DNA of 49,233 bases, taken from positions 1 through 49,233 of the forward strand of contig JAGVWS010000011.1 of assembly GCA_018304165.1 (NCBI GenBank), given 5' to 3'. This document shows, piece by piece, positions 28,401-49,233 of the stretch. The stretch comes from Candidatus Pacearchaeota archaeon (GTDB lineage Archaea > Nanobdellota > Nanobdellia > Pacearchaeales > GW2011-AR1). Each line of letters opens with the position of its first letter. The first letter of the stretch is position 1. The notes under the pieces were generated by a model, which did not search any database, was not told where the DNA came from, and saw only the letters and a list, made by a program, of their open reading frames with translations. Made by a program: the position numbers and the translations under genes.

Positions 28401-28732
28401 CTTCTTTCAGCCTCCTTTCTTATCCTTTCTATCTTCTCTCTTATTGGCCTAATTCTCTCATAAAAATCCTCAACTTTATCAAAATCTTCTTTGTTTCTTA
28501 TTTCATCATAATGTTTTTCGCACTCTTCAAGTGTTAAGTCAACATCAACACCATCGCTATAACTTGGTCCAGCTTGAGACAAAGTAATATCTTTCTGAGA
28601 GTATAACAAAAGATATTTTGTCTTTCCAAGATCTAAGATATCACTCACCCAGCTATGTATCTCTAATCTCTCTTCTAATTGTCCTTTGTTAAACTCGCTT
28701 GGCTCAAGGATTTTTGATTTTAAGATTTTCAT
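28397..28732 (-). CDS. Hypothetical protein
   Basis: 111 aa ORF, ATGA-coupled, GGAGG RBS. Confidence 0.7.
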   Translation of the reverse strand: MKILKSKILEPSEFNKGQLEERLEIHSWVSDILDLGKTKYLLLYSQKDITLSQAGPSYSDGVDVDLTLEECEKHYDEIRNKEDFDKVEDFYERIRPIREKIERIRKEAERR

Positions 28733-29532
28733 TCTAACTTTCCTCCCAATTCTTTCACTAATTTTTCCAGTCTCTCGGCAACTCTTGAGCGATGAGCAAA
28801 GTTATCCTTTGACATGGCGGCGATTCTTCTGAGAAATTCTTTCTCGCTAAGCCCTGCATACTTTCCTGTAGATGGAGAATCATCGCTCGTTCTCTGGCGC
28901 TGCTCATAAAATCTTCCCATGTTATCCATTAAGAAGTAACTTCCGGCATCAACACTCATTTCAATAACGTCAGGAAAAGTGTTCCATCTAAGAACAATGC
29001 ATTTATCATGATTGTCATGCCTTGCAGCTCTGTGAATCCTTGATTCTGTAGTGTTGGGAAAAATACCTCCGACTAATTCAATAATCTTTGGAATGGCAGA
29101 CCATATTCTTCTAAGACTGGCGTCATCTCCAACAACGGCCTTGATTTCGGCCTCTGCTCTCTTTCTTTCAATGCCCCGCTCATATTCAGTTCTGATGTTA
29201 TAAAAAGAATCAGAGTTAGTTATGCGAGCGAATAATGCCTGCGCCTCTTCAAGAGTCAGACCCTCTCTAAGTCCTAAGTAAGACTTAATGCTTTCAATAG
29301 TATCTGACGGGGCGAAGATTCTCTCTCCCTCATCATTCCTTCTGGTCAGGTATTCTCTTGCAGTATACACTAAATGGCAGCTGTTTTCTCTTGGCTTGTC
29401 TTCAGCATCTTTCCATGCCCTTATTTCAAGGCTTTCAAGAAGCCCAAGCTGCCTTGAAGCGACGAGCGCTGTCCTCTCATCGTCTTTCTCCTGCTGGTAT
29501 GTCTTAGTTGTTTCGGCGTTTGTTTCAGCCAT
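28729..29532 (-). CDS. Hypothetical protein, first gene of the MORC operon
   Basis: 267 aa ORF divergent from the AbrB-PhoU gene. Confidence 0.75.
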   Translation of the reverse strand: MAETNAETTKTYQQEKDDERTALVASRQLGLLESLEIRAWKDAEDKPRENSCHLVYTAREYLTRRNDEGERIFAPSDTIESIKSYLGLREGLTLEEAQALFARITNSDSFYNIRTEYERGIERKRAEAEIKAVVGDDASLRRIWSAIPKIIELVGGIFPNTTESRIHRAARHDNHDKCIVLRWNTFPDVIEMSVDAGSYFLMDNMGRFYEQRQRTSDDSPSTGKYAGLSEKEFLRRIAAMSKDNFAHRSRVAERLEKLVKELGGKLE

Positions 29533-29690
29533 AGTGCATTGTTTTGTATTTCTTTAATAGTAACATATAATAACATATTTGATTTTAATATCTAACTGAT
29601 ATTATTGATATGAGTGATATTAAAAAGCGAAAGAGTTAAAAACCGTAAAGGATTACCCTTAACAGGTCAACCCAGACTAAATAAAGAAAA

Positions 29691-30608
29691 ATGGAAGAAC
29701 GAAAACTGATAAAGCAAGGCGGAGGCGGACTTACAATCTACCTTCCTAAGAAGTGGCTTGACAGGAAAGGGCTGAAGGAAGGAGATAAGGTAAGCGTCAT
29801 TGAAGACGAAGGTTCATTGATTATTGAAGGGAAAGTTAACAAAAAGAACGAAATCATAATTGGCATTAATGAGTCTAATATTAATGACTTAAGACACCTG
29901 CTCACTCACGCTTACAGGAGAGGTTTTAGTAGAATAATCATCAATCATGAAAGAACTGAAAGAATCATCAAAGAAGTAAAGAAAGTTGTAAGTAACGTTC
30001 TGCTAGGTTTTGAATTAACAAAAATTGAAGGAAATGAACTACTGATAGAAAACATCTCCGAGCCAAGCGAAGAAAAATATGAAGTGATGATGCAGAAAGT
30101 TTTTCTGGTAATAAGTGAAACAATGCAATTAATGTCTAACGATTTTTCCAAGGGAAAGTTTGATGATGCTAATGAGATGAAAGAACTTCGAGACCAGTCT
30201 GACAAATTCATAATCTTCTGCAAGAGGCTGTTAAGCAAGAACAAGCATGAAAGAAACCTGCTCTTTGAATGGGAATTTTTGACATTCATGATGGATATCC
30301 AGCACACATGCTACTACCTATACCACTATTGCTATGATAACAAAATAAAAGGCACTAAAGAAATGATAGCATTTAGCAAAGAATTAGAATCATACTTTTC
30401 TCACCTAAAAACAGCCTATAACAAAAAAGACGCAGCAACAGTCCACAAGATCAATGAATTAAAGAAGAAATACCACTTTGGTGACATCACTAAAATGATT
30501 GAGAAATCAAGAGGCAAAGAAAGCAGTGTTTACGCTTATTTTAGAGAAGTATTCAGAAGCATTCAATTATCAACAAGCCCGATAATGTCCATGAGTTTTA
30601 AGTACTAA
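29691..30608 (+). CDS. AbrB/SpoVT-PhoU phosphate-uptake-regulator-like protein
   Basis: RKLIKQGGGGLTIYLPKKW...LKEGD; AYRRG; LLGFE; helical PhoU-like C-terminus. Confidence 0.85.
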   Translation: MEERKLIKQGGGGLTIYLPKKWLDRKGLKEGDKVSVIEDEGSLIIEGKVNKKNEIIIGINESNINDLRHLLTHAYRRGFSRIIINHERTERIIKEVKKVVSNVLLGFELTKIEGNELLIENISEPSEEKYEVMMQKVFLVISETMQLMSNDFSKGKFDDANEMKELRDQSDKFIIFCKRLLSKNKHERNLLFEWEFLTFMMDIQHTCYYLYHYCYDNKIKGTKEMIAFSKELESYFSHLKTAYNKKDAATVHKINELKKKYHFGDITKMIEKSRGKESSVYAYFREVFRSIQLSTSPIMSMSFKY

Positions 30609-30664
30609 AAAACACTTTATATAGCGTGCTTCAGAATTAAAAGATTTACAAACCGCATCAAATA

Positions 30665-30678
30665 GAAAGCTTTAAATA
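30665..30678 (+). promoter_or_regulatory. BRE+TATA promoter of MNT-HEPN module 1
   Basis: GAAAGC TTTAAATA. Confidence 0.6.
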
Positions 30679-30691
30679 TACTCTTACTCAT

Positions 30692-31264
30692 ATGAATAAT
30701 ATGTTACTCAATAATAAAAAGGTATTAATCTTGGAACAGTTTGTACTAGATTATGATACTAAGAAGTATGGAAGAGATATTGCGAAGAGACTGAAACTAA
30801 ACCAGAAGACTGTTGCTAATATGCTGAACGAACTGGAAAGAGAAGATATCCTGAAATATTCACGGGAAGGAAAGAACAAATATTATTTTCTGAACAAGCT
30901 TAATCCGCACATCAGAGAAATTATTAAATTGGTTGAAGTTGGCAGAAAAATCAGGTTTTTAGAAAAGAATTCTAAATTAAAGGACCTTTTTAATAAACTA
31001 GAAGAAAGAGCCAGCGGGATGGTTCTTATTTTTGGCAGTTATGCAAGCGGGAAGAGCAATGATAAGTCAGACCTTGATGTTTTTGTCATTGGAAGCATAA
31101 AGGATATTAAAGATTTAGAAGATCTCTACAATATTAAAATAAATATTGTAAAAAGCATCAAGAACAAATTTGACAAGAATGAAATTTTTATTAATGAAAT
31201 AATTAAAAATCATATTATTCTCAAAGGAATAGAGGAGTATATCGGTTTAGCATGGCAAGCATAA
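30692..31264 (+). CDS. wHTH-MNT (minimal nucleotidyltransferase) antitoxin-like
   Basis: N-terminal HTH; FGSYASG....SDLDV. Confidence 0.88.
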   Translation: MNNMLLNNKKVLILEQFVLDYDTKKYGRDIAKRLKLNQKTVANMLNELEREDILKYSREGKNKYYFLNKLNPHIREIIKLVEVGRKIRFLEKNSKLKDLFNKLEERASGMVLIFGSYASGKSNDKSDLDVFVIGSIKDIKDLEDLYNIKINIVKSIKNKFDKNEIFINEIIKNHIILKGIEEYIGLAWQA

Positions 31265-31734
31265 AATGGTGCTGCGCACAAAAAGAAGGGATTAGGTTAA
31301 TTGAGCCCAGCGATAACCTGGCGTCAGGTTATATGAAGATGGCTGAGGATGCAATAGGCACAATGAACAGAGAGAGAAATTACAATCCTGCCTTCGCAGT
31401 ATCTGCATGTTATTACTCAATGTATTATTCACTTTATTCAATAATGATGAAAATAGGAATCAAATGTGAAATTCATTCATGCAGCCTGGAATTTATGAGG
31501 AGATTTTTGAACAAATTTTATTCTTCAGAATATATTAAAATTATAGAGAGGGCATTTGGATGCAGAGGGATAGCGCAGTATTATGTTGATAAAGTTGTCA
31601 GAAGAGAAGATTCCGATTTTATAATGCTTAAAGCCCCATTTTTCTTATCAAAGTCCAAAGAGATTCTTTCCAAAATAAACCAGAAAGATATTCAGGAAGT
31701 AAGAAAAGGATTATCTTTATTTCTGCCGGAATAA
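31252..31734 (+). CDS. HEPN domain protein
   Basis: YYSMYY, KCEIHSC, R..AQYY. Confidence 0.85.
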   Translation: MASIKWCCAQKEGIRLIEPSDNLASGYMKMAEDAIGTMNRERNYNPAFAVSACYYSMYYSLYSIMMKIGIKCEIHSCSLEFMRRFLNKFYSSEYIKIIERAFGCRGIAQYYVDKVVRREDSDFIMLKAPFFLSKSKEILSKINQKDIQEVRKGLSLFLPE

Positions 31735-31764
31735 TCAACAAGCCCAATAATGTCCATGAGTTTT
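31734..31764 (+). repeat. Duplicated 3' end of the AbrB-PhoU gene (direct repeat of 30569-30599)
   Basis: 30/31 identity; the single difference is synonymous CCG/CCA. Confidence 0.9.
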
Positions 31765-31981
31765 GGATATTATAGTATCTCCGATGGATGATATTATGGC
31801 TTACAGAAATATAGCTATGAGAGATACTTCTATTATCCTTAATATGATTAGCAAGTTTAATGAGCAGGTTAGCAACGACAAATGGTTAGGTGCTTATCAA
31901 AAGTTAATTTAAGAGGGTTAGAGCTAATGGTGGTTGATTCTGAAGTTATTGCTAAATTGTGGCTGGAGCGAAGATATTCTA

Positions 31982-33628
31982 TTAACGATTCTTCATCCTC
32001 TCTTCTCTGCGTTCTTTTAAAATTCTGTCAGCAGTGCCTTCGCCCTGCTCTTCATCAAGCTTCTTCTTGGCTTCATAAAGAAGCTTTAGTGTTTCCCATC
32101 TTTCGCGAGCATGGTCATAAGGGTCGTGAAAGGCAGAATTTTGAGGGAACCTTTGCCAATTATCAATAGCAGGATTGGCGTATTTACCTACTGCCTCCCA
32201 TGCCCTTGAATTCTCCATGTCTACAAGTATTGGAGCAATATCGTCATATTTTGTGCTTCCATTAGCCATCATAATTGCTTCATAAGTAGCCCTTGAATCA
32301 AAAAAGGCGGCTGTTGCTGTTCTTGGATCCTCTAACAAATCAAGCCAGCCCTGAAATTCTCTGGTCTGATAGTAATTAATATCGTTAAGATTCAAAGTGT
32401 TAATATTTCTATCTTTTCCACCAGTAAGAAATATACTAACTACTCCGCCTTTCTTTTCAAACTCTACATCATTCTTACTGGATTCTAATTTTTCTTCTAA
32501 AGCTACTTTTGTAGAGTTCAAGTCAACAAATTTGTTCATTATGGGAATTGCACCTAGGGTTAAAGCCGCTCCAATGCCTGCAACAACACACAATCTCTTA
32601 ATCCTGGATATGGGTTTTGAGCGCTCATATTTCTTAAGAGCTTTATTGAACTCATTCTGCAATACTTCGCCGTTTTCAGGCCTGTTTTTTGGATTATAAG
32701 AAAGGCAAGAACGAAGAAATGGTTTGAGAGCTTTAGGGATATCAGCCAAAGAATCTTCAACTAGTCCCTCATATTCATGTTGTCCCATATTCTGAATTGC
32801 TAAAACCGGATCAATAGTTTCCTCTAACTTTTTTTGCGTTGGATATTTGCCTGTTAATAACCTTACTCCGAGAGCGCCTACTGACCAGACATCTGATTGA
32901 GTAGTTGGATGAGAATCAGTTCTAAATTGTTCAGGAGCTCTGATTGCAATAAAACCAATGTTATCCCTCGGGCTCCTGCTCCATTCTTCTGGACTGACAG
33001 TTGTGGCAGTGCCTGTATCTGCAATAACGATTCTTCTGTTAACAAGACCGGCAGGCTGATAATCCATCAGATTAGCAGGATTCAAATCACCATGAACCCT
33101 GTCAAAATCTGCGTGCAATTCTTTAACGCCATGAACAATATCGCCGAGATACTCCATTTGTAAATCTCTAAATAATTTGGGATTAGAATCCGAGCCCCAG
33201 TTCATCATTTCTTCTAGAGTAGCTCTACACTGGGGCATCCAGATAAATGGCTTTTTATCATCATCCTCAAAAACAACTGATGGGAGAACATAACTAGCTG
33301 GCTGAAAACGAACTTCTCTGGTAATAACTGCGTCATCATTAATCACTCTATGTTCTCTCTGCTTCTGGGAAATTTTTGAATGAGAAAGAAGCTTGATAGC
33401 ACCATATTGCCCTGTTCTTTGATCGCGAGCAGCATAAACAACGCCATTACTCCCCTGGCCTAACTTCCTGCCGACAATGAATCGCTGTGAATTAATAACT
33501 CTCGGAGTTATCTCGCCAAAATCTCTGATTGAGCCGGCCCTGATTAATTCTTCATGAGTCATACCTTGATAAGCAGTATCATCAATAAGCTGAAAATTTT
33601 CACCGCCTGCCGATTCGTCCTTAGTCAT
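31982..33628 (-). CDS. Membrane-anchored Hanks-type Ser/Thr protein kinase
   Basis: LGQGSNGVVY, AIK, HGDLNPAN, DTG, APE, SDVWSVG; one TM, then a C-terminal domain. Confidence 0.9.
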   Translation of the reverse strand: MTKDESAGGENFQLIDDTAYQGMTHEELIRAGSIRDFGEITPRVINSQRFIVGRKLGQGSNGVVYAARDQRTGQYGAIKLLSHSKISQKQREHRVINDDAVITREVRFQPASYVLPSVVFEDDDKKPFIWMPQCRATLEEMMNWGSDSNPKLFRDLQMEYLGDIVHGVKELHADFDRVHGDLNPANLMDYQPAGLVNRRIVIADTGTATTVSPEEWSRSPRDNIGFIAIRAPEQFRTDSHPTTQSDVWSVGALGVRLLTGKYPTQKKLEETIDPVLAIQNMGQHEYEGLVEDSLADIPKALKPFLRSCLSYNPKNRPENGEVLQNEFNKALKKYERSKPISRIKRLCVVAGIGAALTLGAIPIMNKFVDLNSTKVALEEKLESSKNDVEFEKKGGVVSIFLTGGKDRNINTLNLNDINYYQTREFQGWLDLLEDPRTATAAFFDSRATYEAIMMANGSTKYDDIAPILVDMENSRAWEAVGKYANPAIDNWQRFPQNSAFHDPYDHARERWETLKLLYEAKKKLDEEQGEGTADRILKERREERMKNR

Positions 33629-33798
33629 TTTATCCCCTCCACTACTTCTTTCTCTTCCGGGCTATCAATAACATCAATCGCCAGCTTCACGATAGTGCCG
33701 GGCTTTAATTTATTTTCAAGAAATCTCGGAATAACAATTATCGCCTGCGAGCCATGCTTGGCGATGCGCTTGGTGAGGGAGAATTTTTTGGAGGTCAT
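33625..33798 (-). CDS. 57-aa AbrB-like protein (not in ORF track)
   Basis: MTSKKFSLTKRIAKHGSQAIIVIPRFLENKLKPGTIVKLAIDVI...; ATGA overlaps at both ends, GGAGG RBS. Confidence 0.85.
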   Translation of the reverse strand: MTSKKFSLTKRIAKHGSQAIIVIPRFLENKLKPGTIVKLAIDVIDSPEEKEVVEGIK

Positions 33799-34283
33799 TT
33801 TCCTTTCCTCCTCAATATTTTATCCAATCCTACGGCTGCTGCAGCTCCAGCAGCATAAGCGATGAAATCACCAGGCATATTCCAATCAGCGTATTGAGAG
33901 TCGAATATTTTGGCGTACAAACCAAGATGCTCAGAAACTTCCAGAGCATAAGTAAGTACAGTTACTGCAAGAGCGGGTTTTAAAAGAGATTTTGAAACTT
34001 TTGGATTTCTAAAAGCAAGAGTTCCTCCAAACGCAGAAATAGCATTCCACCCGTACTCACGAACGAAGCCTTCAGGAATCTTAGCTAATTTTCCAATAAC
34101 ATAAGTAGCAACAAGTAGAGGAAAAGGGGTTAATAAACCACCAAGAAGTATAGAAGAGGCTGAACTTTCACCAATTTTAATAATGGGAGTATCAAATACT
34201 CTCGTCATCACTCTACTTCTGATGTTGCTATGGCTAAATGAATCACTATCTTTTTCAACTCCTATTTCTAAAGTGGATTCCAT
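33795..34283 (-). CDS. Multi-TM membrane protein (start likely 34283)
   Basis: Hydrophobic segments; LEVSEHLG...GDFIAY..G, reminiscent of VanZ-like membrane proteins. Confidence 0.65.
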   Translation of the reverse strand: MESTLEIGVEKDSDSFSHSNIRSRVMTRVFDTPIIKIGESSASSILLGGLLTPFPLLVATYVIGKLAKIPEGFVREYGWNAISAFGGTLAFRNPKVSKSLLKPALAVTVLTYALEVSEHLGLYAKIFDSQYADWNMPGDFIAYAAGAAAAVGLDKILRRKGK

Positions 34284-34407
34284 TTTATGTATAAAATACA
34301 TAAGCCTAAAGGGTATTTAAACCTTATGGAATGTGATTACTTAAAAGTTACATTAAAAGTACGCATCAGTAAAGATTTATATATCCAAGAATGGCTATTA
34401 ATCACCC

Positions 34408-34905
34408 ATGGCAATTGTAAGAATTCAGCGTTATGTTGACAGAAATAAAGGATATCAGGCTCTTGATGAAGGCACTGTATCAGTCTGGGCTCCCTCTTTC
34501 AGGTGGCATCTTAATCACGGAACGCAGGTCGGGGTTGAGGCGGCAATGCCAAACCTTTCGCAGAGATTTATAGGAGGGCTTCTTGTTGCAGAAGGCGACG
34601 AACTGCTTGTTACAGCGTCAGTTGATGGCTCCGGAGAAGCTGGAATGCAGAGAAGAAGATTTCTAGATATGGATTACGGATACTTCCGCGACGGACAGGT
34701 GAAAGATTTAGGAGAGTTATTATCATCCGGAAGAGAAATACACCTGTTTGCCGGAAGCAACAGAACCACTTATGATTCGTATGGGAGAGTGCTGGTATTT
34801 TCATTAAAAGCTCCTCCGGAAGAGTATTACGAGAGAGTGCAGGAATTAAGAGCGATAGTCATGGGGTTTGATGCTGGGGGGAAGAGAAGAGTCAAAAAGG
34901 CTTAA
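34408..34905 (+). CDS. Hypothetical protein
   Basis: 165 aa ORF with TTTATATA box upstream. Confidence 0.65.
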   Translation: MAIVRIQRYVDRNKGYQALDEGTVSVWAPSFRWHLNHGTQVGVEAAMPNLSQRFIGGLLVAEGDELLVTASVDGSGEAGMQRRRFLDMDYGYFRDGQVKDLGELLSSGREIHLFAGSNRTTYDSYGRVLVFSLKAPPEEYYERVQELRAIVMGFDAGGKRRVKKA

Positions 34906-34989
34906 ATATTAGTAATCCCTAAGGATTACATCAAAATTTGTAACTAAATTTTGTGGCTTAAAAAATTAAAACCCCCAAATTTTTAAACT

Positions 34990-35223
34990 ATGAAGACTAT
35001 TACTGTTAAATTGCCTGAGCGAGAAGCTGAAGAGTTAGACTTATTTGTCAGGGGAAGTGGTTTATCAAAATCTGAATTTATAAGACATTTGCTTATTCAA
35101 AAAATTGGTTTAGACAGAAAAGAAAAACTTGGCTGGATGATGATAGCTGAGAAAGCATTAGCTAAAAGATGGGATAATCCTAAAGACAATAAAGTTTGGA
35201 GCAAATATCTAGAAAATGATTGA
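34990..35223 (+). CDS. Ribbon-helix-helix antitoxin
   Basis: KTITVKLP...LD......SKSEFIR; C-terminal E..L...WD.P.D..VW. Confidence 0.85.
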   Translation: MKTITVKLPEREAEELDLFVRGSGLSKSEFIRHLLIQKIGLDRKEKLGWMMIAEKALAKRWDNPKDNKVWSKYLEND

Positions 35224-35647
35224 ACAAGGTAATTTATTATTAGCACCATTCCCCTTTTCAGACCAATCTGGAAGAAAGGTAAGACCAATAATTGTGATAA
35301 GCAATAATCGTTACAATCAGTATCATGATGATTTGGTAGTTGTTGGAGTTACTTCAAACTTGTTTAAAGACCCCTACTACATTGATTTTACTAATTCTGA
35401 CCTTGATTTTGGCAATTTAACGGCTATTTGTCAAATAATGACTGATGCTCTAACATTAATGGACAAAGAACTATAACGAGAGACCAAAATATTTCACCAT
35501 GTTTTTTGTTCTCTCGAATATATCATAAGACATTATGAGGAAATATTAAAGTCTTATGCTATAATAAGAAAGAGAATAGGTAGAGTTAATAGAAACAAGA
35601 TGAAAGCGATTAATGACAAAATCTTAGAGTTAATAAAGATAAAATGA
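35216..35647 (+). pseudogene. PemK/MazF toxin interrupted by a 90-bp hairpin insertion
   Basis: PFPFSD...K.RP..VIS..VTS; the C-terminus IRKRIGRV...IKIK resumes at 35564. Confidence 0.85.
35474..35563. mobile_element. Family-B composite of two TA-flanked hairpins
   Basis: TA duplication (35472-73/35562-63); the modules recur at 38505-38664 and 39554-39645. Confidence 0.85.
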
Positions 35648-35778
35648 CGATTCTCACTACTAAAGTCGTAAAAGTTGATGGAGAGTATGGAGTGTATTTT
35701 CCAAAATGGTTTGTTAAGAAAGAAAATTTAAAAGAAAGACAAAAACTTACAATTAATATTATTGCTGTTGAACATTAA
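35644..35778 (+). CDS. 44-aa AbrB-like protein (not in ORF track)
   Basis: MTILTTKVVKVDGEYGVYFPKWFVKKENLKERQKLTINI; ATGA overlap with the restored toxin stop. Confidence 0.7.
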   Translation: MTILTTKVVKVDGEYGVYFPKWFVKKENLKERQKLTINIIAVEH

Positions 35779-36161
35779 TTAGCAGGCTCACTCAAATAAC
35801 CCTTTATCTCTTCAATCATTTTCTTAACCTCGTCAGTCATCGGCGCCCTTCCTTCCTCAGCAAGAACTTTGCGGGCTTTTCTTATTATCTTTGCAAATGG
35901 GATGAGAGGAATGGATCTTTGCTCTGCACCCATACATAAAGCAGATTTGTAAAGTATATCTGTGTAAAGCCCTGCTTTGAGATTTAGTATCTGCCCTCTT
36001 GGAGAGAATGTTTCTTCTTTAAGAATTTTGTATATGGGGCAGAGAGATTTTGAAAACCCCGTTTCTATAACATCAGAATTTCCGGCTGCATCCATTATTA
36101 ATTCATGAACCTCTTCCTTTGCGTTGTGAGACTCAATGGTTTCCTTAGCCTGTTTTTTCAT
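35775..36161 (-). CDS. Degenerate 4Fe-4S dicluster (GlcF N-terminal-like) protein; start likely MKKQ
   Basis: GFSKSLCPIY...SPRG...YKSALCMGAE; most cluster Cys are replaced. Confidence 0.65.
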   Translation of the reverse strand: MKKQAKETIESHNAKEEVHELIMDAAGNSDVIETGFSKSLCPIYKILKEETFSPRGQILNLKAGLYTDILYKSALCMGAEQRSIPLIPFAKIIRKARKVLAEEGRAPMTDEVKKMIEEIKGYLSEPAN

Positions 36162-40500: not shown

Positions 40501-40580
40501 AAATATATAAAAACTCATTCTAATAAAAAATAGAGCAGAATCTTAGGGATTAAGAATATCCTTTAGGTTAAACTGGTTTA

Positions 40581-40892: not shown

Positions 40893-40988
40893 ATTGTTTA
40901 ATGGAGATAGGGATATATAAATGTTTTGGTTAATGTTTTTATATTACAATATTAGAAACATTTAAATATATGCTGTATTTCTAAATTT

Positions 40989-41264
40989 ATGGAATTTAAT
41001 AGTGAAGATAAAATCAAAGCAACTATTCTTTATCATTTGAGAAGAAAGAAGGTTATTGGCGGGGTTCATACTCCTATGGATACTTTAAGAAGAGGTTTTC
41101 CTTCTCATGCTGGGAAAGAAGTTGATAGGGCTGCTAAAGAATTAATCAAGCAGGGATTTTTGTTAACTAAGCCCACCAATCAAGGACTTCATGTGATGTT
41201 AAACAAAGACAGACTGATAAAGATTGAAGAGTTTATCAAGAAAGTTTTGGGCCATGAGTTTTGA
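40989..41264 (+). CDS. Small winged-helix-like hypothetical protein
   Basis: IGG.HT...L..GFP.H....V.....LIK.GFL..KPT; divergent from the wHTH gene, own TATA. Confidence 0.7.
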   Translation: MEFNSEDKIKATILYHLRRKKVIGGVHTPMDTLRRGFPSHAGKEVDRAAKELIKQGFLLTKPTNQGLHVMLNKDRLIKIEEFIKKVLGHEF

Positions 41265-41289
41265 ATAGTTATTGCGTTGCTAAAAGAAT

Positions 41290-41846: not shown

Positions 41847-43096
41847 TTTGATTTTAAAAGCCACTTCCAAACAGGTATTATCTTTATTTTTTTTCCATCT
41901 ATTTTTATTTCTTCTTCCTGATCTAATGTTAAGATGAGGCCTTCAGAAAGGCCATATTTCTGCATGGAATCCAACAATCCTTCAATTTCTCTATTTTTAG
42001 TGGCAGGATTGTTAAGGTTTGTCGATACTTGTATAGCTTGAGTTATTTTCAAGCCCCTTTTTATTACAAAATCGCATTCTCTTTTTTCAAGATGATAATA
42101 GACATCTAAACCATGCTTAACTAACTCTATAAAAACTAAATTTTCCAGCCTTTTTCCTTCATTTTCAGTAAAATTAAAAGCCACCGTTCTTAAGAAACTA
42201 TTATCCATGACATAAAATTTTGATGATGATACCTTCTGTTTCTTTATTGAGTAATCGAACTTAGTTATTGTTGATGCAATAAACACGTTTTTTAAGTATT
42301 CAATATATTTCTTTATCATGCTTAAACTCTTTATACTTGATACTTGTTTCAAAGTAGCATAAGAATATGTTCTGCTGACATTAGAGAAAAGATAAAGGAT
42401 TAAATCATTCAGCTCTTTTACTTTTCTTATGTTATATCTCTTTATTATATCTTTGTTTATTATATCTTCAAAGTATTGTTTGGACAGGCTTAGATCGTCA
42501 TTTTTAATAATTAAAGGAAATCCGCCGGTCTTAAAGTATTCATTAAATGCCTTAAAGACTTCTACTCTCTCGCTCGTGGTCTTGTATTCCGGATTTATTT
42601 TTTTTAGTTTTAAAAATTCTCTGAAAGAGAAGGGCAACAGCTTTATTATTTTATTTCTGCCAGTCAAAAAAGTTGATATCTCAGAACTCAACAGATTTGA
42701 ATTTGAACCAGTAACGAACACCTTGATTTTTTTTGCATAAAGATTATTTACCCATCTTTCCCACGATTTAGCATCCTGTATTTCATCAAGAAAATAAACG
42801 ACTTCCTCTTTCCCATATTTTTCCGCTACTATCTCCTCAATATGAGAAAAATTTTCAATATTAAAATCTGAGAATTTTATATCATCAAAACTCAAGTAAA
42901 ATAACTTCTGTTTAATATTTTTAGATATTATTTTTAGGAGTGAGCTTTTCCCGCATCTTCTTATACCCGTTATAATAACAATCTCATTGCCTTTTAGAAA
43001 TTCATCTATAGAAATTTCCCGATCAATAAGATTGTCCATCTTTCTAAAAAGTTCTTGTTGGTCATTAATTACTTCTCTTAGCTTGTCTTTTTCCAT
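41843..43096 (-). CDS. AAA+ superfamily ATPase (AAA_14/DUF4143 type)
   Basis: GIRRCGKS, FLDEIQ, VTGSNS, GGFP, ENLVF, ECDF...IQV. Confidence 0.9.
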   Translation of the reverse strand: MEKDKLREVINDQQELFRKMDNLIDREISIDEFLKGNEIVIITGIRRCGKSSLLKIISKNIKQKLFYLSFDDIKFSDFNIENFSHIEEIVAEKYGKEEVVYFLDEIQDAKSWERWVNNLYAKKIKVFVTGSNSNLLSSEISTFLTGRNKIIKLLPFSFREFLKLKKINPEYKTTSERVEVFKAFNEYFKTGGFPLIIKNDDLSLSKQYFEDIINKDIIKRYNIRKVKELNDLILYLFSNVSRTYSYATLKQVSSIKSLSMIKKYIEYLKNVFIASTITKFDYSIKKQKVSSSKFYVMDNSFLRTVAFNFTENEGKRLENLVFIELVKHGLDVYYHLEKRECDFVIKRGLKITQAIQVSTNLNNPATKNREIEGLLDSMQKYGLSEGLILTLDQEEEIKIDGKKIKIIPVWKWLLKSK

Positions 43097-43228
43097 AGCT
43101 TTTGCAAGATTTTCTTCTTTATAAACCTTTCTTTTCTATTTAATAAGGCTTTATAAATATATGTTAAACAGTAAAGAAAGGTATTCTGTTTAAATTAGTA
43201 GAAGCTTTTATTGAATCAGCAATTCACG

Positions 43229-43279
43229 TTAATGCTTTAGGTCATCTTCAACAATAATGATGGAGAGGGAGCGGGTCAT
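43229..43279 (-). repeat. Orphan 5' end of the response-regulator gene
   Basis: MTRSLSIIIVEDDLKH-stop; direct repeat of 41810-41846. Confidence 0.85.
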
Positions 43280-43641
43280 CTTCTTTTCCTTTTTGATAAA
43301 ATTGGTGTATAACATGTGTCTTCTCTCAAGGTCCTTGGATTTCCGCTATCTATATATTTCCTAAAGGTCATACTAAAATATCTATCCTCCGCCTCACCAT
43401 GACCAGCATAAGTTACTCTAGTTACTCTTCCTGGACCGTATGGATGACGGCCCATGAAGCATCTTACTTCAAACCTTGGGAACCTTCCGTTACTATCACA
43501 CCTAGACAAAATTTTAACGAGACAATTATTAGCTGAATCTTCATATTCTTCACTCTCTAATCTTCCGGACTTATAGGTTATTGATTGTCTATGAAAAACG
43601 GTTGAAGGACATTTAACTTGGAGGAGTGTTTTTGAAGTCAT
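43276..43641 (-). CDS. Hypothetical protein
   Basis: 121 aa, ATGA-coupled. Confidence 0.65.
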   Translation of the reverse strand: MTSKTLLQVKCPSTVFHRQSITYKSGRLESEEYEDSANNCLVKILSRCDSNGRFPRFEVRCFMGRHPYGPGRVTRVTYAGHGEAEDRYFSMTFRKYIDSGNPRTLREDTCYTPILSKRKRR

Positions 43642-43925
43642 CTTCTCTTTCCTTCAAATTTTTTTCTATACTCTTCTCTCAACCCGGAAAAATCTTCTCC
43701 GCTGTTTATCCTATCAAAATAATCATAGCATTCTTCCAAAGTCGTCCGTCTTCTGCAGCCTTTATCAAGAGCTACCCCAAATGCTACACCCTCGGCAGCT
43801 ATATAGTGCCATAATCCATAATTGGCTCTTCCGCGAAGTATATTCCAGCCAATGGTTCTCGTTATAAATAACTCTTCTAAATAACCAATATTTTTATGCC
43901 TAAGAACACCATGTATAGAAGTCAT
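43638..43925 (-). CDS. Hypothetical protein
   Basis: 95 aa, RBS, ATGA-coupled downstream. Confidence 0.65.
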   Translation of the reverse strand: MTSIHGVLRHKNIGYLEELFITRTIGWNILRGRANYGLWHYIAAEGVAFGVALDKGCRRRTTLEECYDYFDRINSGEDFSGLREEYRKKFEGKRR

Positions 43926-43937
43926 TTTCTTTCCCCC

Positions 43938-45209
43938 TTAAAAATTATAACTTACCGCTAGAGCACCAGAAATTGTGCCCCTAGCATCTTCAGGTTTAGT
44001 ATAGCGAATGCCAAGATGAACAGCCCAGGACTCATTACCATTCTTATCCTTGCCACCGCTAAGCAGAGTGGTATGATATTCTAGGTTACTGACGTCGCTG
44101 TTAGAACTCTGGTTATCAAGATAAGAAGTCCTTCCAATCTGGAATTTGTTATGGGTGAGGAAGTTATGACTAATATCTCCAAGGCCGACAGCTATGTCAG
44201 TCTTTAATGTTCTGTCGCTTATCCCTGGATTAGAATACTTAATATCAAAGCTGAACTTTCCGGCTTCTCCGCTATTTGAAGCTGCAGCTCCGAAGAAATC
44301 AAACTTGAATGGATCACTGCCAATGCCAAAAGGGAATGTAGCATCACCGTCGCCAGCAAGGAAGCCAGTAATGGAATTGAATAATGTGTCCTGGACACCA
44401 TTAACAAAAGCACCACCGGGAGTTTTATCACCAAATCTAATCCTAGCTTCAAGTCCATTATTTAAACCCTCACCATTCTCAAAAATTTTAGCATGAGCCC
44501 AAACCTTATAACCCTCGAGAGCACCACTACCCCACTTATTATGAGCAGAGATATTGAAAGTATCTAAATCATTAATTCTATGACCACCAACAGCAATGCC
44601 TGAATTCTCGCTTGTGTTCCAGATAAGAGCATAACCAAAATTGCCCTCACTATCAAGAGTGAATTGGGGCCTGACATTATCCTTGTCCTTTAAAACATCA
44701 GAAAATTTCAGTCCAATAGCGCCAGCAATACGATCATCAAGAGGCTTGGCTAAGTCCTGAACTTCAAGATTCCAGAAGTCAAGCCACTTGCTATCTTTAT
44801 AAGATTTTTCAATGAGAGCGCGGCTGTTTGTATCACCAGAACTCTTAATCTCTTCAGTACCAGCATTAAATCTGAAGCCTGCTAAATCATTGTAAATTTC
44901 ACCAAGAGCCAAATCAGCACCAGTTATTCTGGAGTCGCCTTCGTCCCTGAAAGCAAGCTTTCCAAAGCCATTGCTGACAATAACATGAGATTGAAGATTA
45001 CCATGACCATCAGAATAGCCCCTGGTAAGAATATTAATTGGGCCGCCAGCTCTTTCAACGGCAGGAGCCTGCTCAATAGCAGCCTCTAAATCAGACTGCT
45101 CCTTGATAATTTCGTCGTCATCAGCGAGAGCAAGAGCACCAACGGCGTAAGGCATGACAGCAGCACTAAGAGCGGCAGCGTTAGCGATTTTTTTGAATTT
45201 GTTTGTCAT
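43938..45209 (-). CDS. Secreted beta-strand-rich, porin-like protein (start likely MTNK at 45209)
   Basis: Sec signal ending ALA; many amphipathic strands; C-terminus ISGALAVSYNF. Confidence 0.6.
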   Translation of the reverse strand: MTNKFKKIANAAALSAAVMPYAVGALALADDDEIIKEQSDLEAAIEQAPAVERAGGPINILTRGYSDGHGNLQSHVIVSNGFGKLAFRDEGDSRITGADLALGEIYNDLAGFRFNAGTEEIKSSGDTNSRALIEKSYKDSKWLDFWNLEVQDLAKPLDDRIAGAIGLKFSDVLKDKDNVRPQFTLDSEGNFGYALIWNTSENSGIAVGGHRINDLDTFNISAHNKWGSGALEGYKVWAHAKIFENGEGLNNGLEARIRFGDKTPGGAFVNGVQDTLFNSITGFLAGDGDATFPFGIGSDPFKFDFFGAAASNSGEAGKFSFDIKYSNPGISDRTLKTDIAVGLGDISHNFLTHNKFQIGRTSYLDNQSSNSDVSNLEYHTTLLSGGKDKNGNESWAVHLGIRYTKPEDARGTISGALAVSYNF

Positions 45210-45336
45210 TTTGTTTGTCTTCCTCATCATCTCATGGCTTGTTGTAACCACTTCATGATAACAGGATATCAGAAAAATCACAATATAAACATTTCCATTA
45301 AACTATATAAATTAGTATAAATCTATATATATTTTA

Positions 45337-45350
45337 GAAAAGTTTAAATA
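45337..45350 (+). promoter_or_regulatory. BRE+TATA promoter of AbrB-PhoU gene 2
   Basis: GAAAAG TTTAAATA, 21 nt before the ATG. Confidence 0.7.
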
Positions 45351-45371
45351 GTACCTCTTTTTTAACGCTCT

Positions 45372-46259
45372 ATGAAGAGAAAATTAGTTCAGCAGGGCGC
45401 CAGCACTTTAATGATTAGCCTGCCTTCAAAATGGGCCAAGCAGTTTAATTTAAAGAAGGGCGATGAAGTTGACATTAATGAAAAGGATAAACTGCTTATT
45501 ATAGCAAAAGAGAGCACCAGCGGAGATAAAAAAACAGCTAAAATTGATGTTTCATCATGGCATCCGCTTATTAATCGCTTGTTATTATCTTATTTCCTCA
45601 AAGGATATGATGAAGTTGAGATTCATTATTCCAATCATGAGCAGGTGAAAAGGTTCCAAAAGGATATCCTAACAACCGAATTATTGGGGTGGGAAGTTAT
45701 CAAGCAGAGTCCCGGAGTATTGGTTGTCAAGGACTTGACCGCTGGAGAAATGGGAAATACTGATGACGTTTTAAAGAGGCTGTTCTTCATGCTTGATAAT
45801 ATGTGCGGAGAACTTATTGAAAGCCTTGAGAAGAAACATGATGCAGGGGTTATTGAAAGCGACAAAGTAATTAATAGATTTGTTTACTACTGCTTAAGGC
45901 TTTTGAACAAAAAAGGATATAAAGAATATGATAAAACTTCGCAGGTTTACAGCATAATAACACTTGTTGAAGAAACCGGCGACTTATTCAAGGACATTGC
46001 AAAGAAGAAGTTCAAAGCAATGAAGGATGACCTTGCTGCGCTTAAAGATATAAAAAACTCGTTCGCATTATTCAAAGAGGCATTCTTTAATTTCACCCGC
46101 GAGGTTGAGATAAAGCTCGCTCACAATTACGAAAAAATAAAAAAAGAAATTCATCCTAAGAGCGAGATTGACTCATACCTTCACGCTATAAATGGCAACA
46201 TAATAAGGATGAATAATGAGCTAATGATGATGAATGTTGGCTCTATTTCTGTTCATTAA
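45372..46259 (+). CDS. AbrB/SpoVT-PhoU phosphate-uptake-regulator-like protein (paralog 2)
   Basis: KRKLVQQG.STLMISLPSKW...LKKGDEV; KGYDE; LLGWEV; D..INRF..YCLR.LNK. Confidence 0.88.
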   Translation: MKRKLVQQGASTLMISLPSKWAKQFNLKKGDEVDINEKDKLLIIAKESTSGDKKTAKIDVSSWHPLINRLLLSYFLKGYDEVEIHYSNHEQVKRFQKDILTTELLGWEVIKQSPGVLVVKDLTAGEMGNTDDVLKRLFFMLDNMCGELIESLEKKHDAGVIESDKVINRFVYYCLRLLNKKGYKEYDKTSQVYSIITLVEETGDLFKDIAKKKFKAMKDDLAALKDIKNSFALFKEAFFNFTREVEIKLAHNYEKIKKEIHPKSEIDSYLHAINGNIIRMNNELMMMNVGSISVH

Positions 46260-46316
46260 TATAGACAATGGTCTCGTAAAAGTTCGCTTGAGCTTATTTA
46301 GAACGCTATAGTCTTA

Positions 46317-46330
46317 GAAAAGTTTATATA
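46317..46330 (+). promoter_or_regulatory. BRE+TATA promoter of MNT-HEPN module 2
   Basis: GAAAAG TTTATATA, 21 nt before the ATG. Confidence 0.7.
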
Positions 46331-46351
46331 GGGCTTATAATATTCATAATA

Positions 46352-46930
46352 ATGAAGAAATCAATTAAAGGCGTAAAAGTAGAAGAATTTGAGAGGGCTT
46401 ATAGGAAAACTTTGGCATGGTTCTTCGCCTTTCCAGAAAGAAAAACAGGACTTACAGAGCTTTCTAAACTAATCAAATCCTCAAAAACAGCTACTAAAGA
46501 AGCTGTAGAAACTCTGATTAACAATGAATTTATTAACAGAGAAATTGCAGGCAAGGCATGGATTCTATCAGCTAACGAAAGAAATAAGCACTTCCAAATC
46601 AAAAAAATTCCTTATCACTTGGATAAAATTTATGAATCGGGAGTCATAGAGGTTATTTATCAAATTATACCCCAGCCGAGAGCAATAGTTTTATTTGGAA
46701 GCTATAGGCATGGAGTTGATACTGAGGAAAGTGACTTGGACATCGCTGTGGAAGTCTTGGGAAATGAAGAGTTCCGGATAAGGAAGATTGTGGCTATTGA
46801 ACAATTGGGTTACAGAAAGAACATCCCTGTTAATATTCATATCTTTTCCAGGAATAAAATCGATATAAATTTATTTTCAAACATTGCCAACGGGATAGTG
46901 CTTGATGGATTCTTGGAGGTCAGGCCATGA
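46352..46930 (+). CDS. wHTH-MNT nucleotidyltransferase
   Basis: N-terminal HTH; LFGSYRHG.D.EESDLDIA; NIANGIVL.G. Confidence 0.88.
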   Translation: MKKSIKGVKVEEFERAYRKTLAWFFAFPERKTGLTELSKLIKSSKTATKEAVETLINNEFINREIAGKAWILSANERNKHFQIKKIPYHLDKIYESGVIEVIYQIIPQPRAIVLFGSYRHGVDTEESDLDIAVEVLGNEEFRIRKIVAIEQLGYRKNIPVNIHIFSRNKIDINLFSNIANGIVLDGFLEVRP

Positions 46931-47349
46931 GAACTAAATTTCCTGATAAGAAAAGGGCGTTGAGTGTTATCGCTGCTTCAGAAAAAGAAATGAAATACAC
47001 ACTTAATCTGCCAGTCAGTGAAGAGTCTGCATTTAATATCATAAGAAATATTTATGAATGCTTCAGAATGCTCGGAGACGCTCTATTAATATCCAGAGGC
47101 TTTGCTTCTGAAGACCACGCAGAGCAGGTAACAGAACTTCAATCAATACCTGTTAAAACTGATAGGCCTGTTAAGCTGATTGATTCGCTTAGAAAAATAC
47201 GCCATAACATAAATTATTATGGCTACATTCCATCAATAGCTGAAGCTGAAGATGCAATCTCAATAACTAAAGCATGCTATTACCAGTTATTAGAATCTAT
47301 TAAGAAAGAAATAAAAATGAAGGTGATTAGGAAATTTTCGCACCAATAA
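46927..47349 (+). CDS. HEPN-like protein
   Basis: YECFR....A....G....H; LRKIRHNINYYG. Confidence 0.8.
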   Translation: MRTKFPDKKRALSVIAASEKEMKYTLNLPVSEESAFNIIRNIYECFRMLGDALLISRGFASEDHAEQVTELQSIPVKTDRPVKLIDSLRKIRHNINYYGYIPSIAEAEDAISITKACYYQLLESIKKEIKMKVIRKFSHQ

Positions 47350-47616
47350 GTTACCTCAAAACCAGGAATAATCAACTAATATAGATAATTCCCTTGATTG
47401 TAGCACCTGTTTTAGAATTATCTATCACGGAAATTCTGGACAAATCTGTGCTACAATTACCAGAATTTACGATAGCTTGTAAAACGCTGCTCTAAGCTGC
47501 ATGCGGGTGTCTGATATATTAATTAATATCAAGAGGGTTGTTTATAATAATTATAAAGGCTATTGATAATAGTTATATTGAAACTTAGTGTGGATTTCCG
47601 CTGCTCACCAAATGAA

Positions 47617-49233
47617 TTATTTCTCTTCAGCCTTATCCTTTAACGGCTCAATCCTTTTAGGTATCTTCCGCCAGCCGAGCCTTAAACCTTTCTCGTAATT
47701 TTCATCTGGATGATTATTTATCTCCCATTTGTAATTTGGAGGGTCATTCTTATGGTCTGGATTCTCCCTATAAATAATGTCCTTACTTCGTATTGGAATA
47801 CCAGTATAATTAATCAAGTCACCATTAGAATTGTAGAGGCCAACGGCTAACGTCCTGTTCGTTATCTTATTGGCTGCTGGAATGTCAAAATTCCCTACGT
47901 CATGAACATTAACCGCTGATCTGAAAGAATTATACTCTGGAATTACCCTTGAGTCATCTTCTGGAAATACGACTATGCTTCTGAGATCATGAGAAACCCT
48001 TCCCATCTCGTCATCAACCCTTCTGAAATTCAATTTTTCAGCCCCAAACCACCCGATAGTTGCTCTTCCAAGCTTTAATTGCTCTGAAGTATTATCCTTA
48101 TCAGGAATCTTGCCAACTACTACTGGAACTAATAGCCTGGCAATGACTGTATTTGGATTGTCATAAACAATGTCCTTTCTTCTATCTTCTTCTCTGACAT
48201 CATGATTGTCTGGGGCATAGACTTCAATCGCTATATTCCTTACATTGCCAAATTCTTCTCTTGGAGGCAATTCAATTGTCGGCCAGCAAAATCCAATCAT
48301 TGAGGTTTGAGCTCCATATTCACTAGACCTGTTATAACCTGAAGGGTAGATGCTGAAGTCCTTGCCTTCAAATCCCTCAAAATAAATCCTTCCCTTCAAA
48401 GTGCCAATAGAGCTGGAATTAATGCTATCTCTTTTCTTTCTGGGAATTTCTCTGGCATTAATAGTAGCAAATAATCCTCTAGGGCTTCTGCTCCTGTATT
48501 CTTCTTCAGGAATTAGAATAAAATCACCAGCGTCATGATATTCTGAAACATAGGGCTTTTCATTAGCAGAACTTTCACCAACAAACATGACATTGGCTCC
48601 TAACTCTAATAAATTATTACCAATGGCTATGTTCTTGCTGTCCCAATCAGAGGTAACAACAACTGAAGTTTCTGAAGCTCTTGCTTCCAAACTTTTCTCC
48701 TTATTGTTAGCCATGATTCCAGCTCCTACTGCGAGTATCCCTCCAATAACCGTCATGCCTACCATTGGATGCCAATAATTCCAGTAAGAGCGATCCGCCT
48801 TAGCTTTATCATTAAAGTCTCTGGACAAATCCTTAACAGTCCTATATCTTTCATCAAGGTCGGGACTCAAACAATTTCTAATTATTTTGCGCCATTTTCT
48901 TGGAACTTTTTTTATGGCTTTCTTCAAATCATTAATATCAGGTATTTCTCCAGTAAGAGCATAATACATATCAGCACCAAGAAAGTGAATTTCTGACTGC
49001 TCATCATGAATACCTGAAGATGAACGAGGATCAGAAATAGACTTGTTCAAATAAGTTGTAACTACTTCACATCTTGAATTATCACCAATCCTCTTAGCCA
49101 GAGCAAGGTCAGTAAGCCTTCCTTTTCCCTCAGAAGTCACGAGAATATTCCTGGGAGTAGGATCACGATGATAAATACCATTCTCAACTAAGTAACGCTC
49201 GCCCTCAATAACATCAGTAAAAACACCAATGAA
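47617..49233 (-). CDS. Membrane-anchored Ser/Thr protein kinase, 5'-truncated by the window edge
   Basis: Frame upstream of the tracked start reads GIYHRDPTPRNILV...LTDLAL; LTG..P, CL.PD..ERY; one TM and a large beta-rich C-terminal domain. Confidence 0.85.
   Translation of the reverse strand, partial: FIGVFTDVIEGERYLVENGIYHRDPTPRNILVTSEGKGRLTDLALAKRIGDNSRCEVVTTYLNKSISDPRSSSGIHDEQSEIHFLGADMYYALTGEIPDINDLKKAIKKVPRKWRKIIRNCLSPDLDERYRTVKDLSRDFNDKAKADRSYWNYWHPMVGMTVIGGILAVGAGIMANNKEKSLEARASETSVVVTSDWDSKNIAIGNNLLELGANVMFVGESSANEKPYVSEYHDAGDFILIPEEEYRSRSPRGLFATINAREIPRKKRDSINSSSIGTLKGRIYFEGFEGKDFSIYPSGYNRSSEYGAQTSMIGFCWPTIELPPREEFGNVRNIAIEVYAPDNHDVREEDRRKDIVYDNPNTVIARLLVPVVVGKIPDKDNTSEQLKLGRATIGWFGAEKLNFRRVDDEMGRVSHDLRSIVVFPEDDSRVIPEYNSFRSAVNVHDVGNFDIPAANKITNRTLAVGLYNSNGDLINYTGIPIRSKDIIYRENPDHKNDPPNYKWEINNHPDENYEKGLRLGWRKIPKRIEPLKDKAEEK

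Follow-up and report, generated by a model that had tools for sequence, protein, structure and literature searches.

The stretch of archaeal DNA considered here, referred to as the window, is a whole contig of 49,233 nt (JAGVWS010000011.1; C18) from Candidatus Pacearchaeota archaeon (assembly GCA_018304165.1), the genome of which (G000; other C numbers denote its other contigs) is available as 867 kb in 42 contigs and is 79% complete. Besides the ribosomal proteins S28e and L7Ae, both of the archaeal type, the window encodes twice the same gene layout, in which a minus-strand operon is divergent from a plus-strand gene for an AbrB-PhoU protein (AP), followed on the same strand by genes for a winged helix-turn-helix (wHTH) minimal nucleotidyltransferase (MNT) and a HEPN protein, and these converge on a minus-strand gene for a single-pass Ser/Thr kinase (KIN). 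A preliminary description of this DNA regarded all four parts as one regulatory platform. Comparison with related genomes makes it probable that the two copies are anciently diverged versions of a signalling cassette widespread in DPANN archaea, each of which was later invaded by an autonomous module consisting of a wHTH-MNT and a HEPN gene.

In copy 1, the minus-strand operon (23520-29532) is separated by a divergent spacer of 158 nt from AP1 (29691-30608, plus strand), behind which lie MNT1 (30692-31264, plus) and HEPN1 (31252-31734, plus); the kinase arm consists of KIN1 (31982-33628, minus), a small gene of 57 codons, S57 (33625-33798, minus), and a gene for a membrane protein (33795-34301, minus). 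Copy 2 comprises minus-strand genes (43276-45281), AP2 (45372-46259, plus), MNT2 (46352-46930, plus), HEPN2 (46927-47349, plus) and KIN2 (47617-49233, minus). The last of these is truncated by the contig end, but the terminal 99 bp of the window are exactly the first 99 bp of C7 and are matched on no other G000 contig. The AP stop codon precedes the MNT start by 83 nt in copy 1 and 92 nt in copy 2, and inserts plus spacers place 1373 and 1357 nt, respectively, between AP and the kinase. The coordinates of the open reading frames (ORFs) of both copies bear out the shared order and orientation described previously. The high divergence of the paralogues is equally evident: AP1 and AP2 are 26% identical (E 2e-15), MNT1 and MNT2 37% identical over 81 amino acids (aa) (E 4e-7), and pairwise similarity is below significance for the two HEPN proteins (E 0.11) and the two kinases (E 0.031). 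The layout is not an assembly artefact because contigs from two other samples span it, one set (X4) covering AP1-MNT1-HEPN1 and HEPN1-KIN1 and the other (X5) reaching from the 3' end of AP1 to KIN1 and also covering AP2-MNT2.

AbrB-PhoU regulators and their kinase partners

AP1 (305 aa) consists of an AbrB/MazE domain, a small alpha/beta domain and a PhoU-like helical bundle, and AP2 (295 aa) is likewise an AbrB-PhoU regulator. Both proteins pass the gathering cut-off (24.7 bits) of PF04014 (AbrB/MazE/SpoVT), AP1 with 28.9 bits (E 1e-6) and AP2 with 40.6 bits (E 2.5e-10), and matches to this profile were obtained for all 40 AP family members examined. The cut-off of the PhoU profile PF01895 (23.5 bits) is not reached, with 13.8 bits for AP2 and no match for AP1; at E<=0.1 the profile matches 15 of 40 family members (best, 2e-5), and a search of the G000 genome returned nothing at that threshold. 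When the AP family was used as the query in a profile search of the PDB, nothing but designed helical bundles was recovered. In the AlphaFold2 (AF2) model of AP2 (pLDDT 90.4), an N-terminus of the AbrB type leads via a small alpha/beta domain into six long helices (residues 130-289). In a Foldseek search of the PDB, the top ten matches of this model were all PhoU (probability 1.00, target TM score 0.45-0.61, E 0.025-0.096), and its N-terminus was aligned to MazE (1ub4_C). The PhoU label, weak by sequence, is supported by the modelled fold, which points to a six-helix PhoU bundle; relatives of AP are named ‘phosphate uptake regulator’ in databases. Consistent with the preliminary description, in which no pst genes were seen nearby, Pst-type domains are absent among the immediate neighbours of AP genes (78 downstream and 76 upstream) and within the window, and no PstB scored over the cut-off in the G000 genome, as far as the 79% complete assembly extends.

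KIN1 contains a Hanks-type Ser/Thr kinase domain (residues 52-327), a transmembrane helix (343-361) and an outer domain of ~190 aa. Its Pkinase (PF00069) score of 94.6 bits is far above the cut-off of 31.7, and the catalytic motifs appear as AIK, HGDLNPAN and IADTG. Among 5.8 billion proteins, KIN1 has a single close homologue (51% identity), and its outer domain belongs to no known family. KIN2, also of the Hanks type, is represented in the window by its C-terminal 538 aa, with one transmembrane helix and an outer domain of ~360 aa; the N-terminus, corresponding to Pkinase positions 84-131, is located on C7. Scores of 30.9-33.7 bits against the same Pkinase cut-off were obtained for this gene, which is cut by the contig end, and its motifs read YHRDPTPRN and TDLA. 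A protein atlas search with the KIN2 outer domain gave no usable match, and this domain, too, falls into no known family. In both kinases, the one predicted transmembrane helix is C-terminal to the kinase domain.

The AP family comprises 105 protein clusters in Woese-, Pace- and Nanoarchaeota, with 336 confirmed stretches in contigs of one genome per species. We retrieved 80 AP loci, each together with flanking DNA of 10 kb, and predicted their ORFs by a simple script that takes the longest frame. In most of these loci, a large convergent gene directly follows AP (position +1). At E<=0.001, Pfam recognized Pkinase in nine of 78 +1 proteins and APH alone in 11, and the large downstream proteins cluster into three families of 24, 15 and 13 members, namely, Pkinase, TPR+APH-like and APH/CK2-like. 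Compared with the PDB, the profiles of the two families without a Pfam name matched aminoglycoside and choline kinases (plus TPR) in one case and casein kinase 2 or spectinomycin phosphotransferase in the other, and their consensus sequences retain the catalytic pattern of H-x-D...N plus D-x-E. When the three family profiles were applied to the 73 AP genes from other genomes of Woese-, Pace- and Nanoarchaeota for which at least 1.5 kb of downstream sequence is available, 36 proved to have a kinase-fold gene at +1 and 43 had one within +3. The kinase is convergent on AP in 42 of these 43 loci, with stop-to-stop spacers mostly between -53 and +20 nt. Furthermore, of 58 kinase-fold ORFs among a total of 1447 ORFs, 51 are located at +1 to +3 and two upstream.

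In an unbiased check of 41 related genomes, Pkinase matches were mostly to small proteins of ~200 aa, probably Bud32-like. Only 12 matches fall in open frames of at least 400 aa and six of these abut AP: two each in G000 and G001 and one each in G002 and G004. In G000, each of the two kinases of this size is separated from one AP gene by a single MNT-HEPN insert. The pairing holds at 25-45% AP identity and, given that the partners belong to three kinase-fold families, the adjacency has survived partner replacement. The association of AbrB-PhoU with a receptor-type kinase noted in the preliminary description is thus upheld as a lineage-wide, non-random gene pair. On the other side of AP, 29 of 76 loci, chiefly those of the more distant relatives, have at -1 a gene for a regulator of the Lrp/AsnC type, with the AsnC-specific domain in 27 of them; an unrelated orphan occupies this position in the closest relatives.

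The most informative relative is G001, a genome of the same genus, which carries both cassettes 5.5 kb apart with stop-to-stop gaps of 12 and 0 bp and with no MNT or HEPN gene at either AP/kinase junction. The orthologues of AP1 (68% identity) and KIN1 (51%) are followed by the small gene (S57), a ribbon-helix-helix (RHH)-PemK pair and the second cassette, which consists of an orthologue (46%) of the 447-aa protein encoded upstream of AP2, the AP2 orthologue (44%) and a kinase (L111:17000-18589). Outside the catalytic core, this kinase has no significant match to KIN2, despite the 44% identity of the adjacent AP proteins. By sequence comparison, the kinase facing the AP2 orthologue is thus judged not to be orthologous to KIN2, having been either exchanged or diverged past recognition.

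The kinase-1 operon begins with the gene for a hydrophobic protein of 168 aa, which has no homologue in G001 and overlaps S57 by 4 nt; the stop codon of S57 in turn overlaps the KIN1 start by 4 nt. S57 is strongly conserved, with the core ITKRIAKHGSQAIIVIPRILE-LKPGT. Its homologues occur in nine of 80 AP loci, and eight of 12 matches lie directly upstream of a kinase-fold gene (Pkinase or APH-like). A second copy is found on C7 (C7:850-1053), separated from KIN2 by an ORF of 94 aa. No Pfam or NCBIfam profile matches S57. An hhalign comparison with the AbrB domain of AP yielded an in-register alignment, yet with E 0.015 and a probability of 3%. The AF2 model (pLDDT 72.8) had compact Foldseek matches in the PDB only to RIFT-fold designs and MazE (E 1.8-3.2). 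S57 possibly adopts an AbrB/MazE-like cradle-loop fold. The evidence for this fold is weak, and the AbrB-like label given previously is kept as a suggestion. Upstream of the KIN2 operon (C7:1751-3918), we observed a Peptidase_M78/IrrE-like gene (E 1e-5) and a divergent gene of the Fic/DOC family (E 2e-20). A complex prediction for KIN1 residues 1-342 and AP1 from separate alignments scored 0.00 in each of two runs, which counts neither for nor against an interaction.

No description of a kinase/AbrB-PhoU cassette was found in the literature searched. Phosphorylation of Bacillus subtilis AbrB was reportedly described by Kobir and colleagues in 2014. According to passages of PMC4837961, AbrB is phosphorylated on Ser86 by PrkC, PrkD and YabT, which lowers its DNA binding. 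Judged by analogy, this appears to be the nearest described counterpart: both combine a Ser/Thr kinase of the eukaryotic kind (PrkC and YabT being anchored in the membrane) with an AbrB-fold DNA-binding protein. By contrast, the DPANN regulator bears an additional PhoU-like bundle, the organisms are archaea, and the genes are fixed tail-to-tail neighbours; abrB of B. subtilis is not known to be linked to the kinase genes. A PhoU beside a signalling kinase offers an attractive, if looser, parallel. Bacterial PhoU, which modulates the PhoR kinase and the PstSCAB transporter, contacts PhoR and PstB, and the C-terminal two-thirds of AP2 are modelled as a six-helix bundle of the PhoU type. Unlike bacterial PhoU, however, AP is fused to an AbrB domain, has no pst genes nearby and remains below the Pfam PhoU cut-off, and its partner is a Hanks kinase rather than a histidine kinase. 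The AbrB-PhoU architecture is also annotated in TK2245 of Thermococcus kodakarensis, listed among chromosome-associated proteins in PMC7325993, the relevant passages of which report neither a function nor a kinase link for this protein.

MNT-HEPN modules and traces of their insertion

MNT1 (190 aa) and MNT2 (192 aa) consist of a wHTH followed by a nucleotidyltransferase domain. HEPN1 (160 aa) starts 13 nt before the end of MNT1, and HEPN2 (140 aa) has its last ~28 nt inside a repeat element (element b, see below). Both MNTs pass the NTP_transf_2 (PF01909) cut-off of 21 bits (MNT1, 24.8; MNT2, 32.2), with MNT1 also being over the Polbeta cut-off, and carry the G[SG]x9-13DxD motif as FGSYASGKSNDKSDLDV and FGSYRHGVDTEESDLDI, respectively. 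Among the PADLOC profiles, for which there are no curated cut-offs, PDC-M05A matches MNT1 (E 1e-16, nearly full length) and MNT2 (E 3e-8), and PDC-M05B matches HEPN2 (E 5e-5), with no match for HEPN1. The HEPN cut-off of PF05168 (22 bits) is not reached by HEPN1 (18.7 bits, E 0.002), and HEPN2 has no match. Nevertheless, a profile seeded with HEPN1 gathers 12 G000 proteins, HEPN2 included (E 1e-25). Pfam gives nine HEPN matches in G000, seven of them over the cut-off, and most of these seven coincide in position with members of this family. The catalytic motif of HEPN RNases is R-x4-6-H; because the 12 aligned G000 members instead conserve R-x4-Y, in which a Tyr takes the place of the His, RNase activity of this family is uncertain.

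HEPN/MNT modules are well-known mobile toxin-antitoxin (TA) systems, as outlined in parts of PMC2701414, PMC7641770 and PMC11586414, and in the characterized systems, by the accounts given in the latter two, the MNT AMPylates the HEPN RNase. In the relevant part of PMC12988326, PDC-M05 is presented as a nucleotidyltransferase plus HEPN system that is enriched in Archaea and has an unconfirmed antiviral role. The modules in the window resemble both PDC-M05 and the type VII HepT/MntA system in that the MNT gene comes first and is directly followed by an overlapping HEPN gene. They differ from HepT/MntA by the N-terminal wHTH of the MNTs, by scores against the MntA profile NF047752 (NCBIfam) that, at 25.8 and 32.3 bits, are far below the cut-off of 60, and by the R-x4-Y motif of HEPN.

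The two modules belong to a family that is expanded in G000. Pfam detects 20 NTP_transf_2 matches in this genome and local profiles 18 wHTH-MNT genes, 12 of which are paired with HEPN in varied contexts, amounting to at least 12 pairs or about one per 70 kb. Maximum-likelihood phylogeny joins MNT1 to the C26 and C9 copies (support 91/92) and MNT2 to those of C13, C22 and C42 (99/99). Not one of 200 bootstrap trees makes MNT1 and MNT2 sisters, and they represent different subfamilies. Each MNT start codon is preceded at ~25-37 nt by a box resembling a B recognition element (BRE) and TATA element, AAAGCTTTAAATA or GAAAAGTTTATATA, the TATA-like box of MNT1 being ~25 nt upstream; here and below, we take such boxes to be promoters on the basis of the archaeal consensus. 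In other genomes, an MNT-HEPN pair adjoins AP, at +1, in one of 91 loci, and relatives detected in these loci with the G000 family profiles are scattered from -13 to +7 with no preference, so that the expected enrichment of MNT beside AP was not seen.

Traces of insertion are clearest in copy 1. A 35-nt sequence formed by the last codons of AP1 (30565-30599, plus) recurs behind the insert (31730-31764, plus) at a spacing of 1165 nt and with 94% identity. The second copy, apparently a relic of the original AP1 3' end, continues with GGATAT..., resembling the last codons of the AP1 orthologue in G001. The repeat bounding insert 1 is most simply read from its sequence as a target duplication. At the matching places of copy 2, there is only a 13-nt AT-rich repeat, which may be due to chance. 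A further pair closely related to MNT1-HEPN1 (C26:12760-13867) lies between direct copies of a 23-nt sequence that corresponds to the initial codons of the gene behind it, an unrelated gene of 569 aa, so that here it is a 5' end that is duplicated. The duplication of gene ends at AP1 and on C26 hints at a common insertion mechanism or, alternatively, at selection sparing the target gene.

Short interspersed repeats have also been inserted at both junctions. Element c (31774-31836, 63 nt), in the HEPN1-KIN1 spacer, has five copies in the genome, the one in the window included (74-100% identity), all intergenic. In the HEPN2-KIN2 spacer, element a (47377-47477, 101 nt; 13 copies, up to 100% identical; hairpin z -3.7) is nested inside element b (~47311-47381 plus 47464-47612, ~150-210 nt; 17 copies), which enters the last codons of HEPN2; the copies are mostly intergenic. 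Rfam yielded no match across 28000-49233 at E<=1, and all three elements look like miniature inverted-repeat transposable elements (MITEs). Contig depth in other samples peaks at further repeat-like spots near 35.5, 39.5 and 41.5 kb, including ~35474-35540 and ~41507-41540. Contigs of four DNA runs over 29234-49233 contain no listed joint that skips precisely 30600-31764 or 46260-47376. A joint from 45352 to 46681 was disregarded, as it is based on 21 letters in one contig. Relatives of AP2 in metagenome contigs (seven loci, best identity 46%) include none close enough for dating the insertions.

Upstream operons, operator-like motifs and other variable DNA

The genes divergent from AP are unrelated from locus to locus, even within the genus, in line with the differing cargo of the two copies reported in the preliminary description. 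The operon upstream of AP1 consists of eight packed ORFs with overlaps of 4-25 bp, one of which (26185-27804) encodes a putative GHKL/MORC-type ATPase of 539 aa; the rest are orphans without Pfam or PADLOC matches. The earlier designation of this operon by MORC has its sole basis in the HATPase_c_3 match of the ATPase (E 4e-11, residues 29-118); for the remainder of the protein, Pfam and PADLOC gave no match. Three orphan genes precede AP2, the first of which (43938-45281, 447 aa) has an N-terminal signal-like hydrophobic segment; none matched Pfam or PADLOC profiles. A response regulator, previously placed here, was not recovered, as Pfam gave no match for it among the ORFs scanned between 38805 and 45281, at thresholds of E<=0.001, 0.01 or 0.05 depending on the scan. 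At the site of the GHKL-ATPase operon, with conserved flanks, G001 has a wholly different set of twelve co-directional genes (L111:4250-10435), mostly of 116-193 aa and one of 432 aa. One gene of this set has a Sigma54_DBD-like match (E 2e-10), which is odd in an archaeon. A shared family among the upstream cargo was considered and rejected: the 28 upstream proteins with 200 aa or more form 19 unrelated clusters of at most three members.

The divergent intergenic regions, where a search for motifs had been proposed, do contain conserved operator-like elements. M1 (29583-29625), upstream of AP1, consists of three TGATAT repeats ~10 nt apart within a 10-nt inverted repeat and is followed by the BRE/TATA-like sequence GAAAGAGTTAAAAA. 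Its core of ~55 nt is near-identical in G000 and G001 despite divergence of the flanks, and is kept in G002. Scanning the window for TGATAT-N4-TGATAT gave one unrelated match versus 0.83 expected, the spacing being wrong for M1. M2 (45313-45330, plus), TAGTATAAATCTATATAT, lies 59 nt upstream of the AP2 start codon, with the BRE/TATA-like GAAAAGTTTAAATA at -35. It recurs at -59/-60 in 10 of 90 AP upstream regions, including L003 and L111, which represent the same G001 DNA, and when whole loci are scanned, L001 and L002 also have it, in L001 ahead of an ORF that overlaps the AP start. In total, there are 22 matches in 2.86 Mb of strand-bases and one good match in the entire G000 genome. No copy of a cis motif was found upstream of the kinase operons. 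The distance of M1 and M2 is fixed with respect to the AP start codon, not to the cargo, and is conserved across genera. That AbrB-PhoU proteins control interchangeable effector operons is an inference from these shared intergenic regions.

Other parts of the window carry further variable DNA. An RHH (CopG) plus PemK/MazF TA pair (34990-35476) is located between the cassettes, as it is in G001 (76-78% identity). Two AAA_14/DUF4143 ATPases are encoded at 41843-43096 and 7592-8839, the first matching PADLOC PDC-S01 from end to end (E 4e-109). With this ATPase and the TA pairs, the DNA that is specific to G000 between the two cassettes looks like mobile or defence material. Closer to the start of the contig, an HNH endonuclease gene is convergent with an N6/N4 DNA methylase gene and a gene of a ‘phage metallopeptidase’ family is nearby (10020-11353 and 12236-12625 for the three), so that the first third of the contig may well contain more DNA of mobile or viral origin.

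Two probably invaded signalling cassettes and the alternatives

Several observations weigh against the reading of the locus as two signalling cassettes invaded by independent modules. The counts of 36 and 43 of 73 are biased because the kinase profiles themselves derive from genes that lie downstream of AP, and the Pfam-based count is smaller (20 of 78 +1 genes at E<=0.001); no kinase was detected within +3 in 30 of the 73 loci. Because convergent genes are not co-transcribed, the functional link between regulator and kinase is argued from synteny. G001 is rather distant, with neighbouring genes at ~64-78% protein identity, and a variant lacking the insertions, from which the event could be dated, was not encountered. 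Finally, the probability that random insertion would occupy the 3' junctions of both AP genes is only ~1e-4 to 3e-4, as estimated post hoc for 12-18 modules and ~1050 junctions; with a chance double insertion this improbable, targeting or selection may be involved.

This last point leaves room for a different history, in which MNT-HEPN modules would preferentially land or be kept at the AP/kinase junction, with strain-level co-option, either because the modules target the 3' end of the regulator gene or because read-through from the AP promoter couples the HEPN effector to the kinase pathway. The location of insert 1 within the final codons of AP1, accompanied by a duplication of 35 nt, and the position of both modules on the AP strand, 83-92 nt behind AP, fit such a scenario. 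However, the two junctions share no target sequence, considering that copy 2 offers only its 13-nt repeat, the C26 insertion affects the 5' end of a gene that is unrelated, other pairs occur in varied contexts, and the AP loci of other genomes show no enrichment. We regard this scenario as unlikely, although of consequence if true: the kinase and AbrB-PhoU would then gate a HEPN effector of dormancy or abortive infection, a new sensor-to-suicide circuit in a symbiotic archaeon.

A second alternative holds that the adjacency of AbrB-PhoU and the kinase reflects no functional coupling, being an inherited order or a by-product of their location in variable islands. Convergent transcription and the 30 loci without a nearby kinase could be cited in its favour, as could the AP genes of several relatives that have other neighbours. 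Yet, the pairing has lasted at 25-45% AP identity and with three non-orthologous families of kinase fold, it was retained when the kinase beside AP2 was apparently exchanged between G000 and G001, and large Hanks kinases are rare but half of them abut AP, all of which renders an uncoupled pair improbable. Equally hard to sustain is the platform of the preliminary description, in which an AbrB-PhoU sensor, MNT-HEPN and a receptor kinase would jointly control interchangeable effector operons: order, strand and spacing do agree in both copies, as random placement would seldom bring about, and the kinase plus AbrB-PhoU unit and the variable cargo stand, but the ‘nucleotidylation pair’ is a passenger, given its near absence beside AP elsewhere and its lack at both G001 junctions, the different MNT subfamilies, their own promoter-like boxes and the duplication flanking insert 1.

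The reading that we prefer, that of two invaded signalling cassettes, can be outlined as follows. One arm of each cassette would be an operon ending in a single-pass receptor-type Ser/Thr kinase, preceded in this subclade by S57; the other would be the AbrB-PhoU regulator gene, tail-to-tail with the kinase and equipped with its own conserved operator and promoter. In the lineage of this strain, each tail-to-tail junction was probably invaded by a TA-like module of the PDC-M05 type drawn from the expanded G000 family, and the upstream cargo operons would be unrelated neighbours in a variable region. From the observed synteny, insertions and motifs, we infer the biochemical steps: an outside signal would act on the outer domain of the kinase, which would modify or bind the AbrB-PhoU protein (or S57), and the resulting change in operator binding would alter expression of the regulator itself and of its divergent neighbour. 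Phosphorylation of the regulator by the kinase is suggested by synteny and by the B. subtilis analogy. The MNT-HEPN pairs would work independently, as addiction or abortive-infection modules.

The comparison with relatives separates, within one window, a conserved core of kinase operon and regulator from later additions, namely, MNT-HEPN modules and interspersed repeats, and cautions that a gene order repeated inside one genome does not amount to a functional unit unless it is compared with that of relatives. It also exposes the spread of mobile TA or defence-candidate modules in a very small genome, two of the insertions having a duplicated gene end on either side. Next to nothing is known of how DPANN archaea perceive their environment or their hosts, and the kinase/AbrB-PhoU cassette, together with its operator motifs, provides a concrete, testable candidate for a signalling unit in these organisms.

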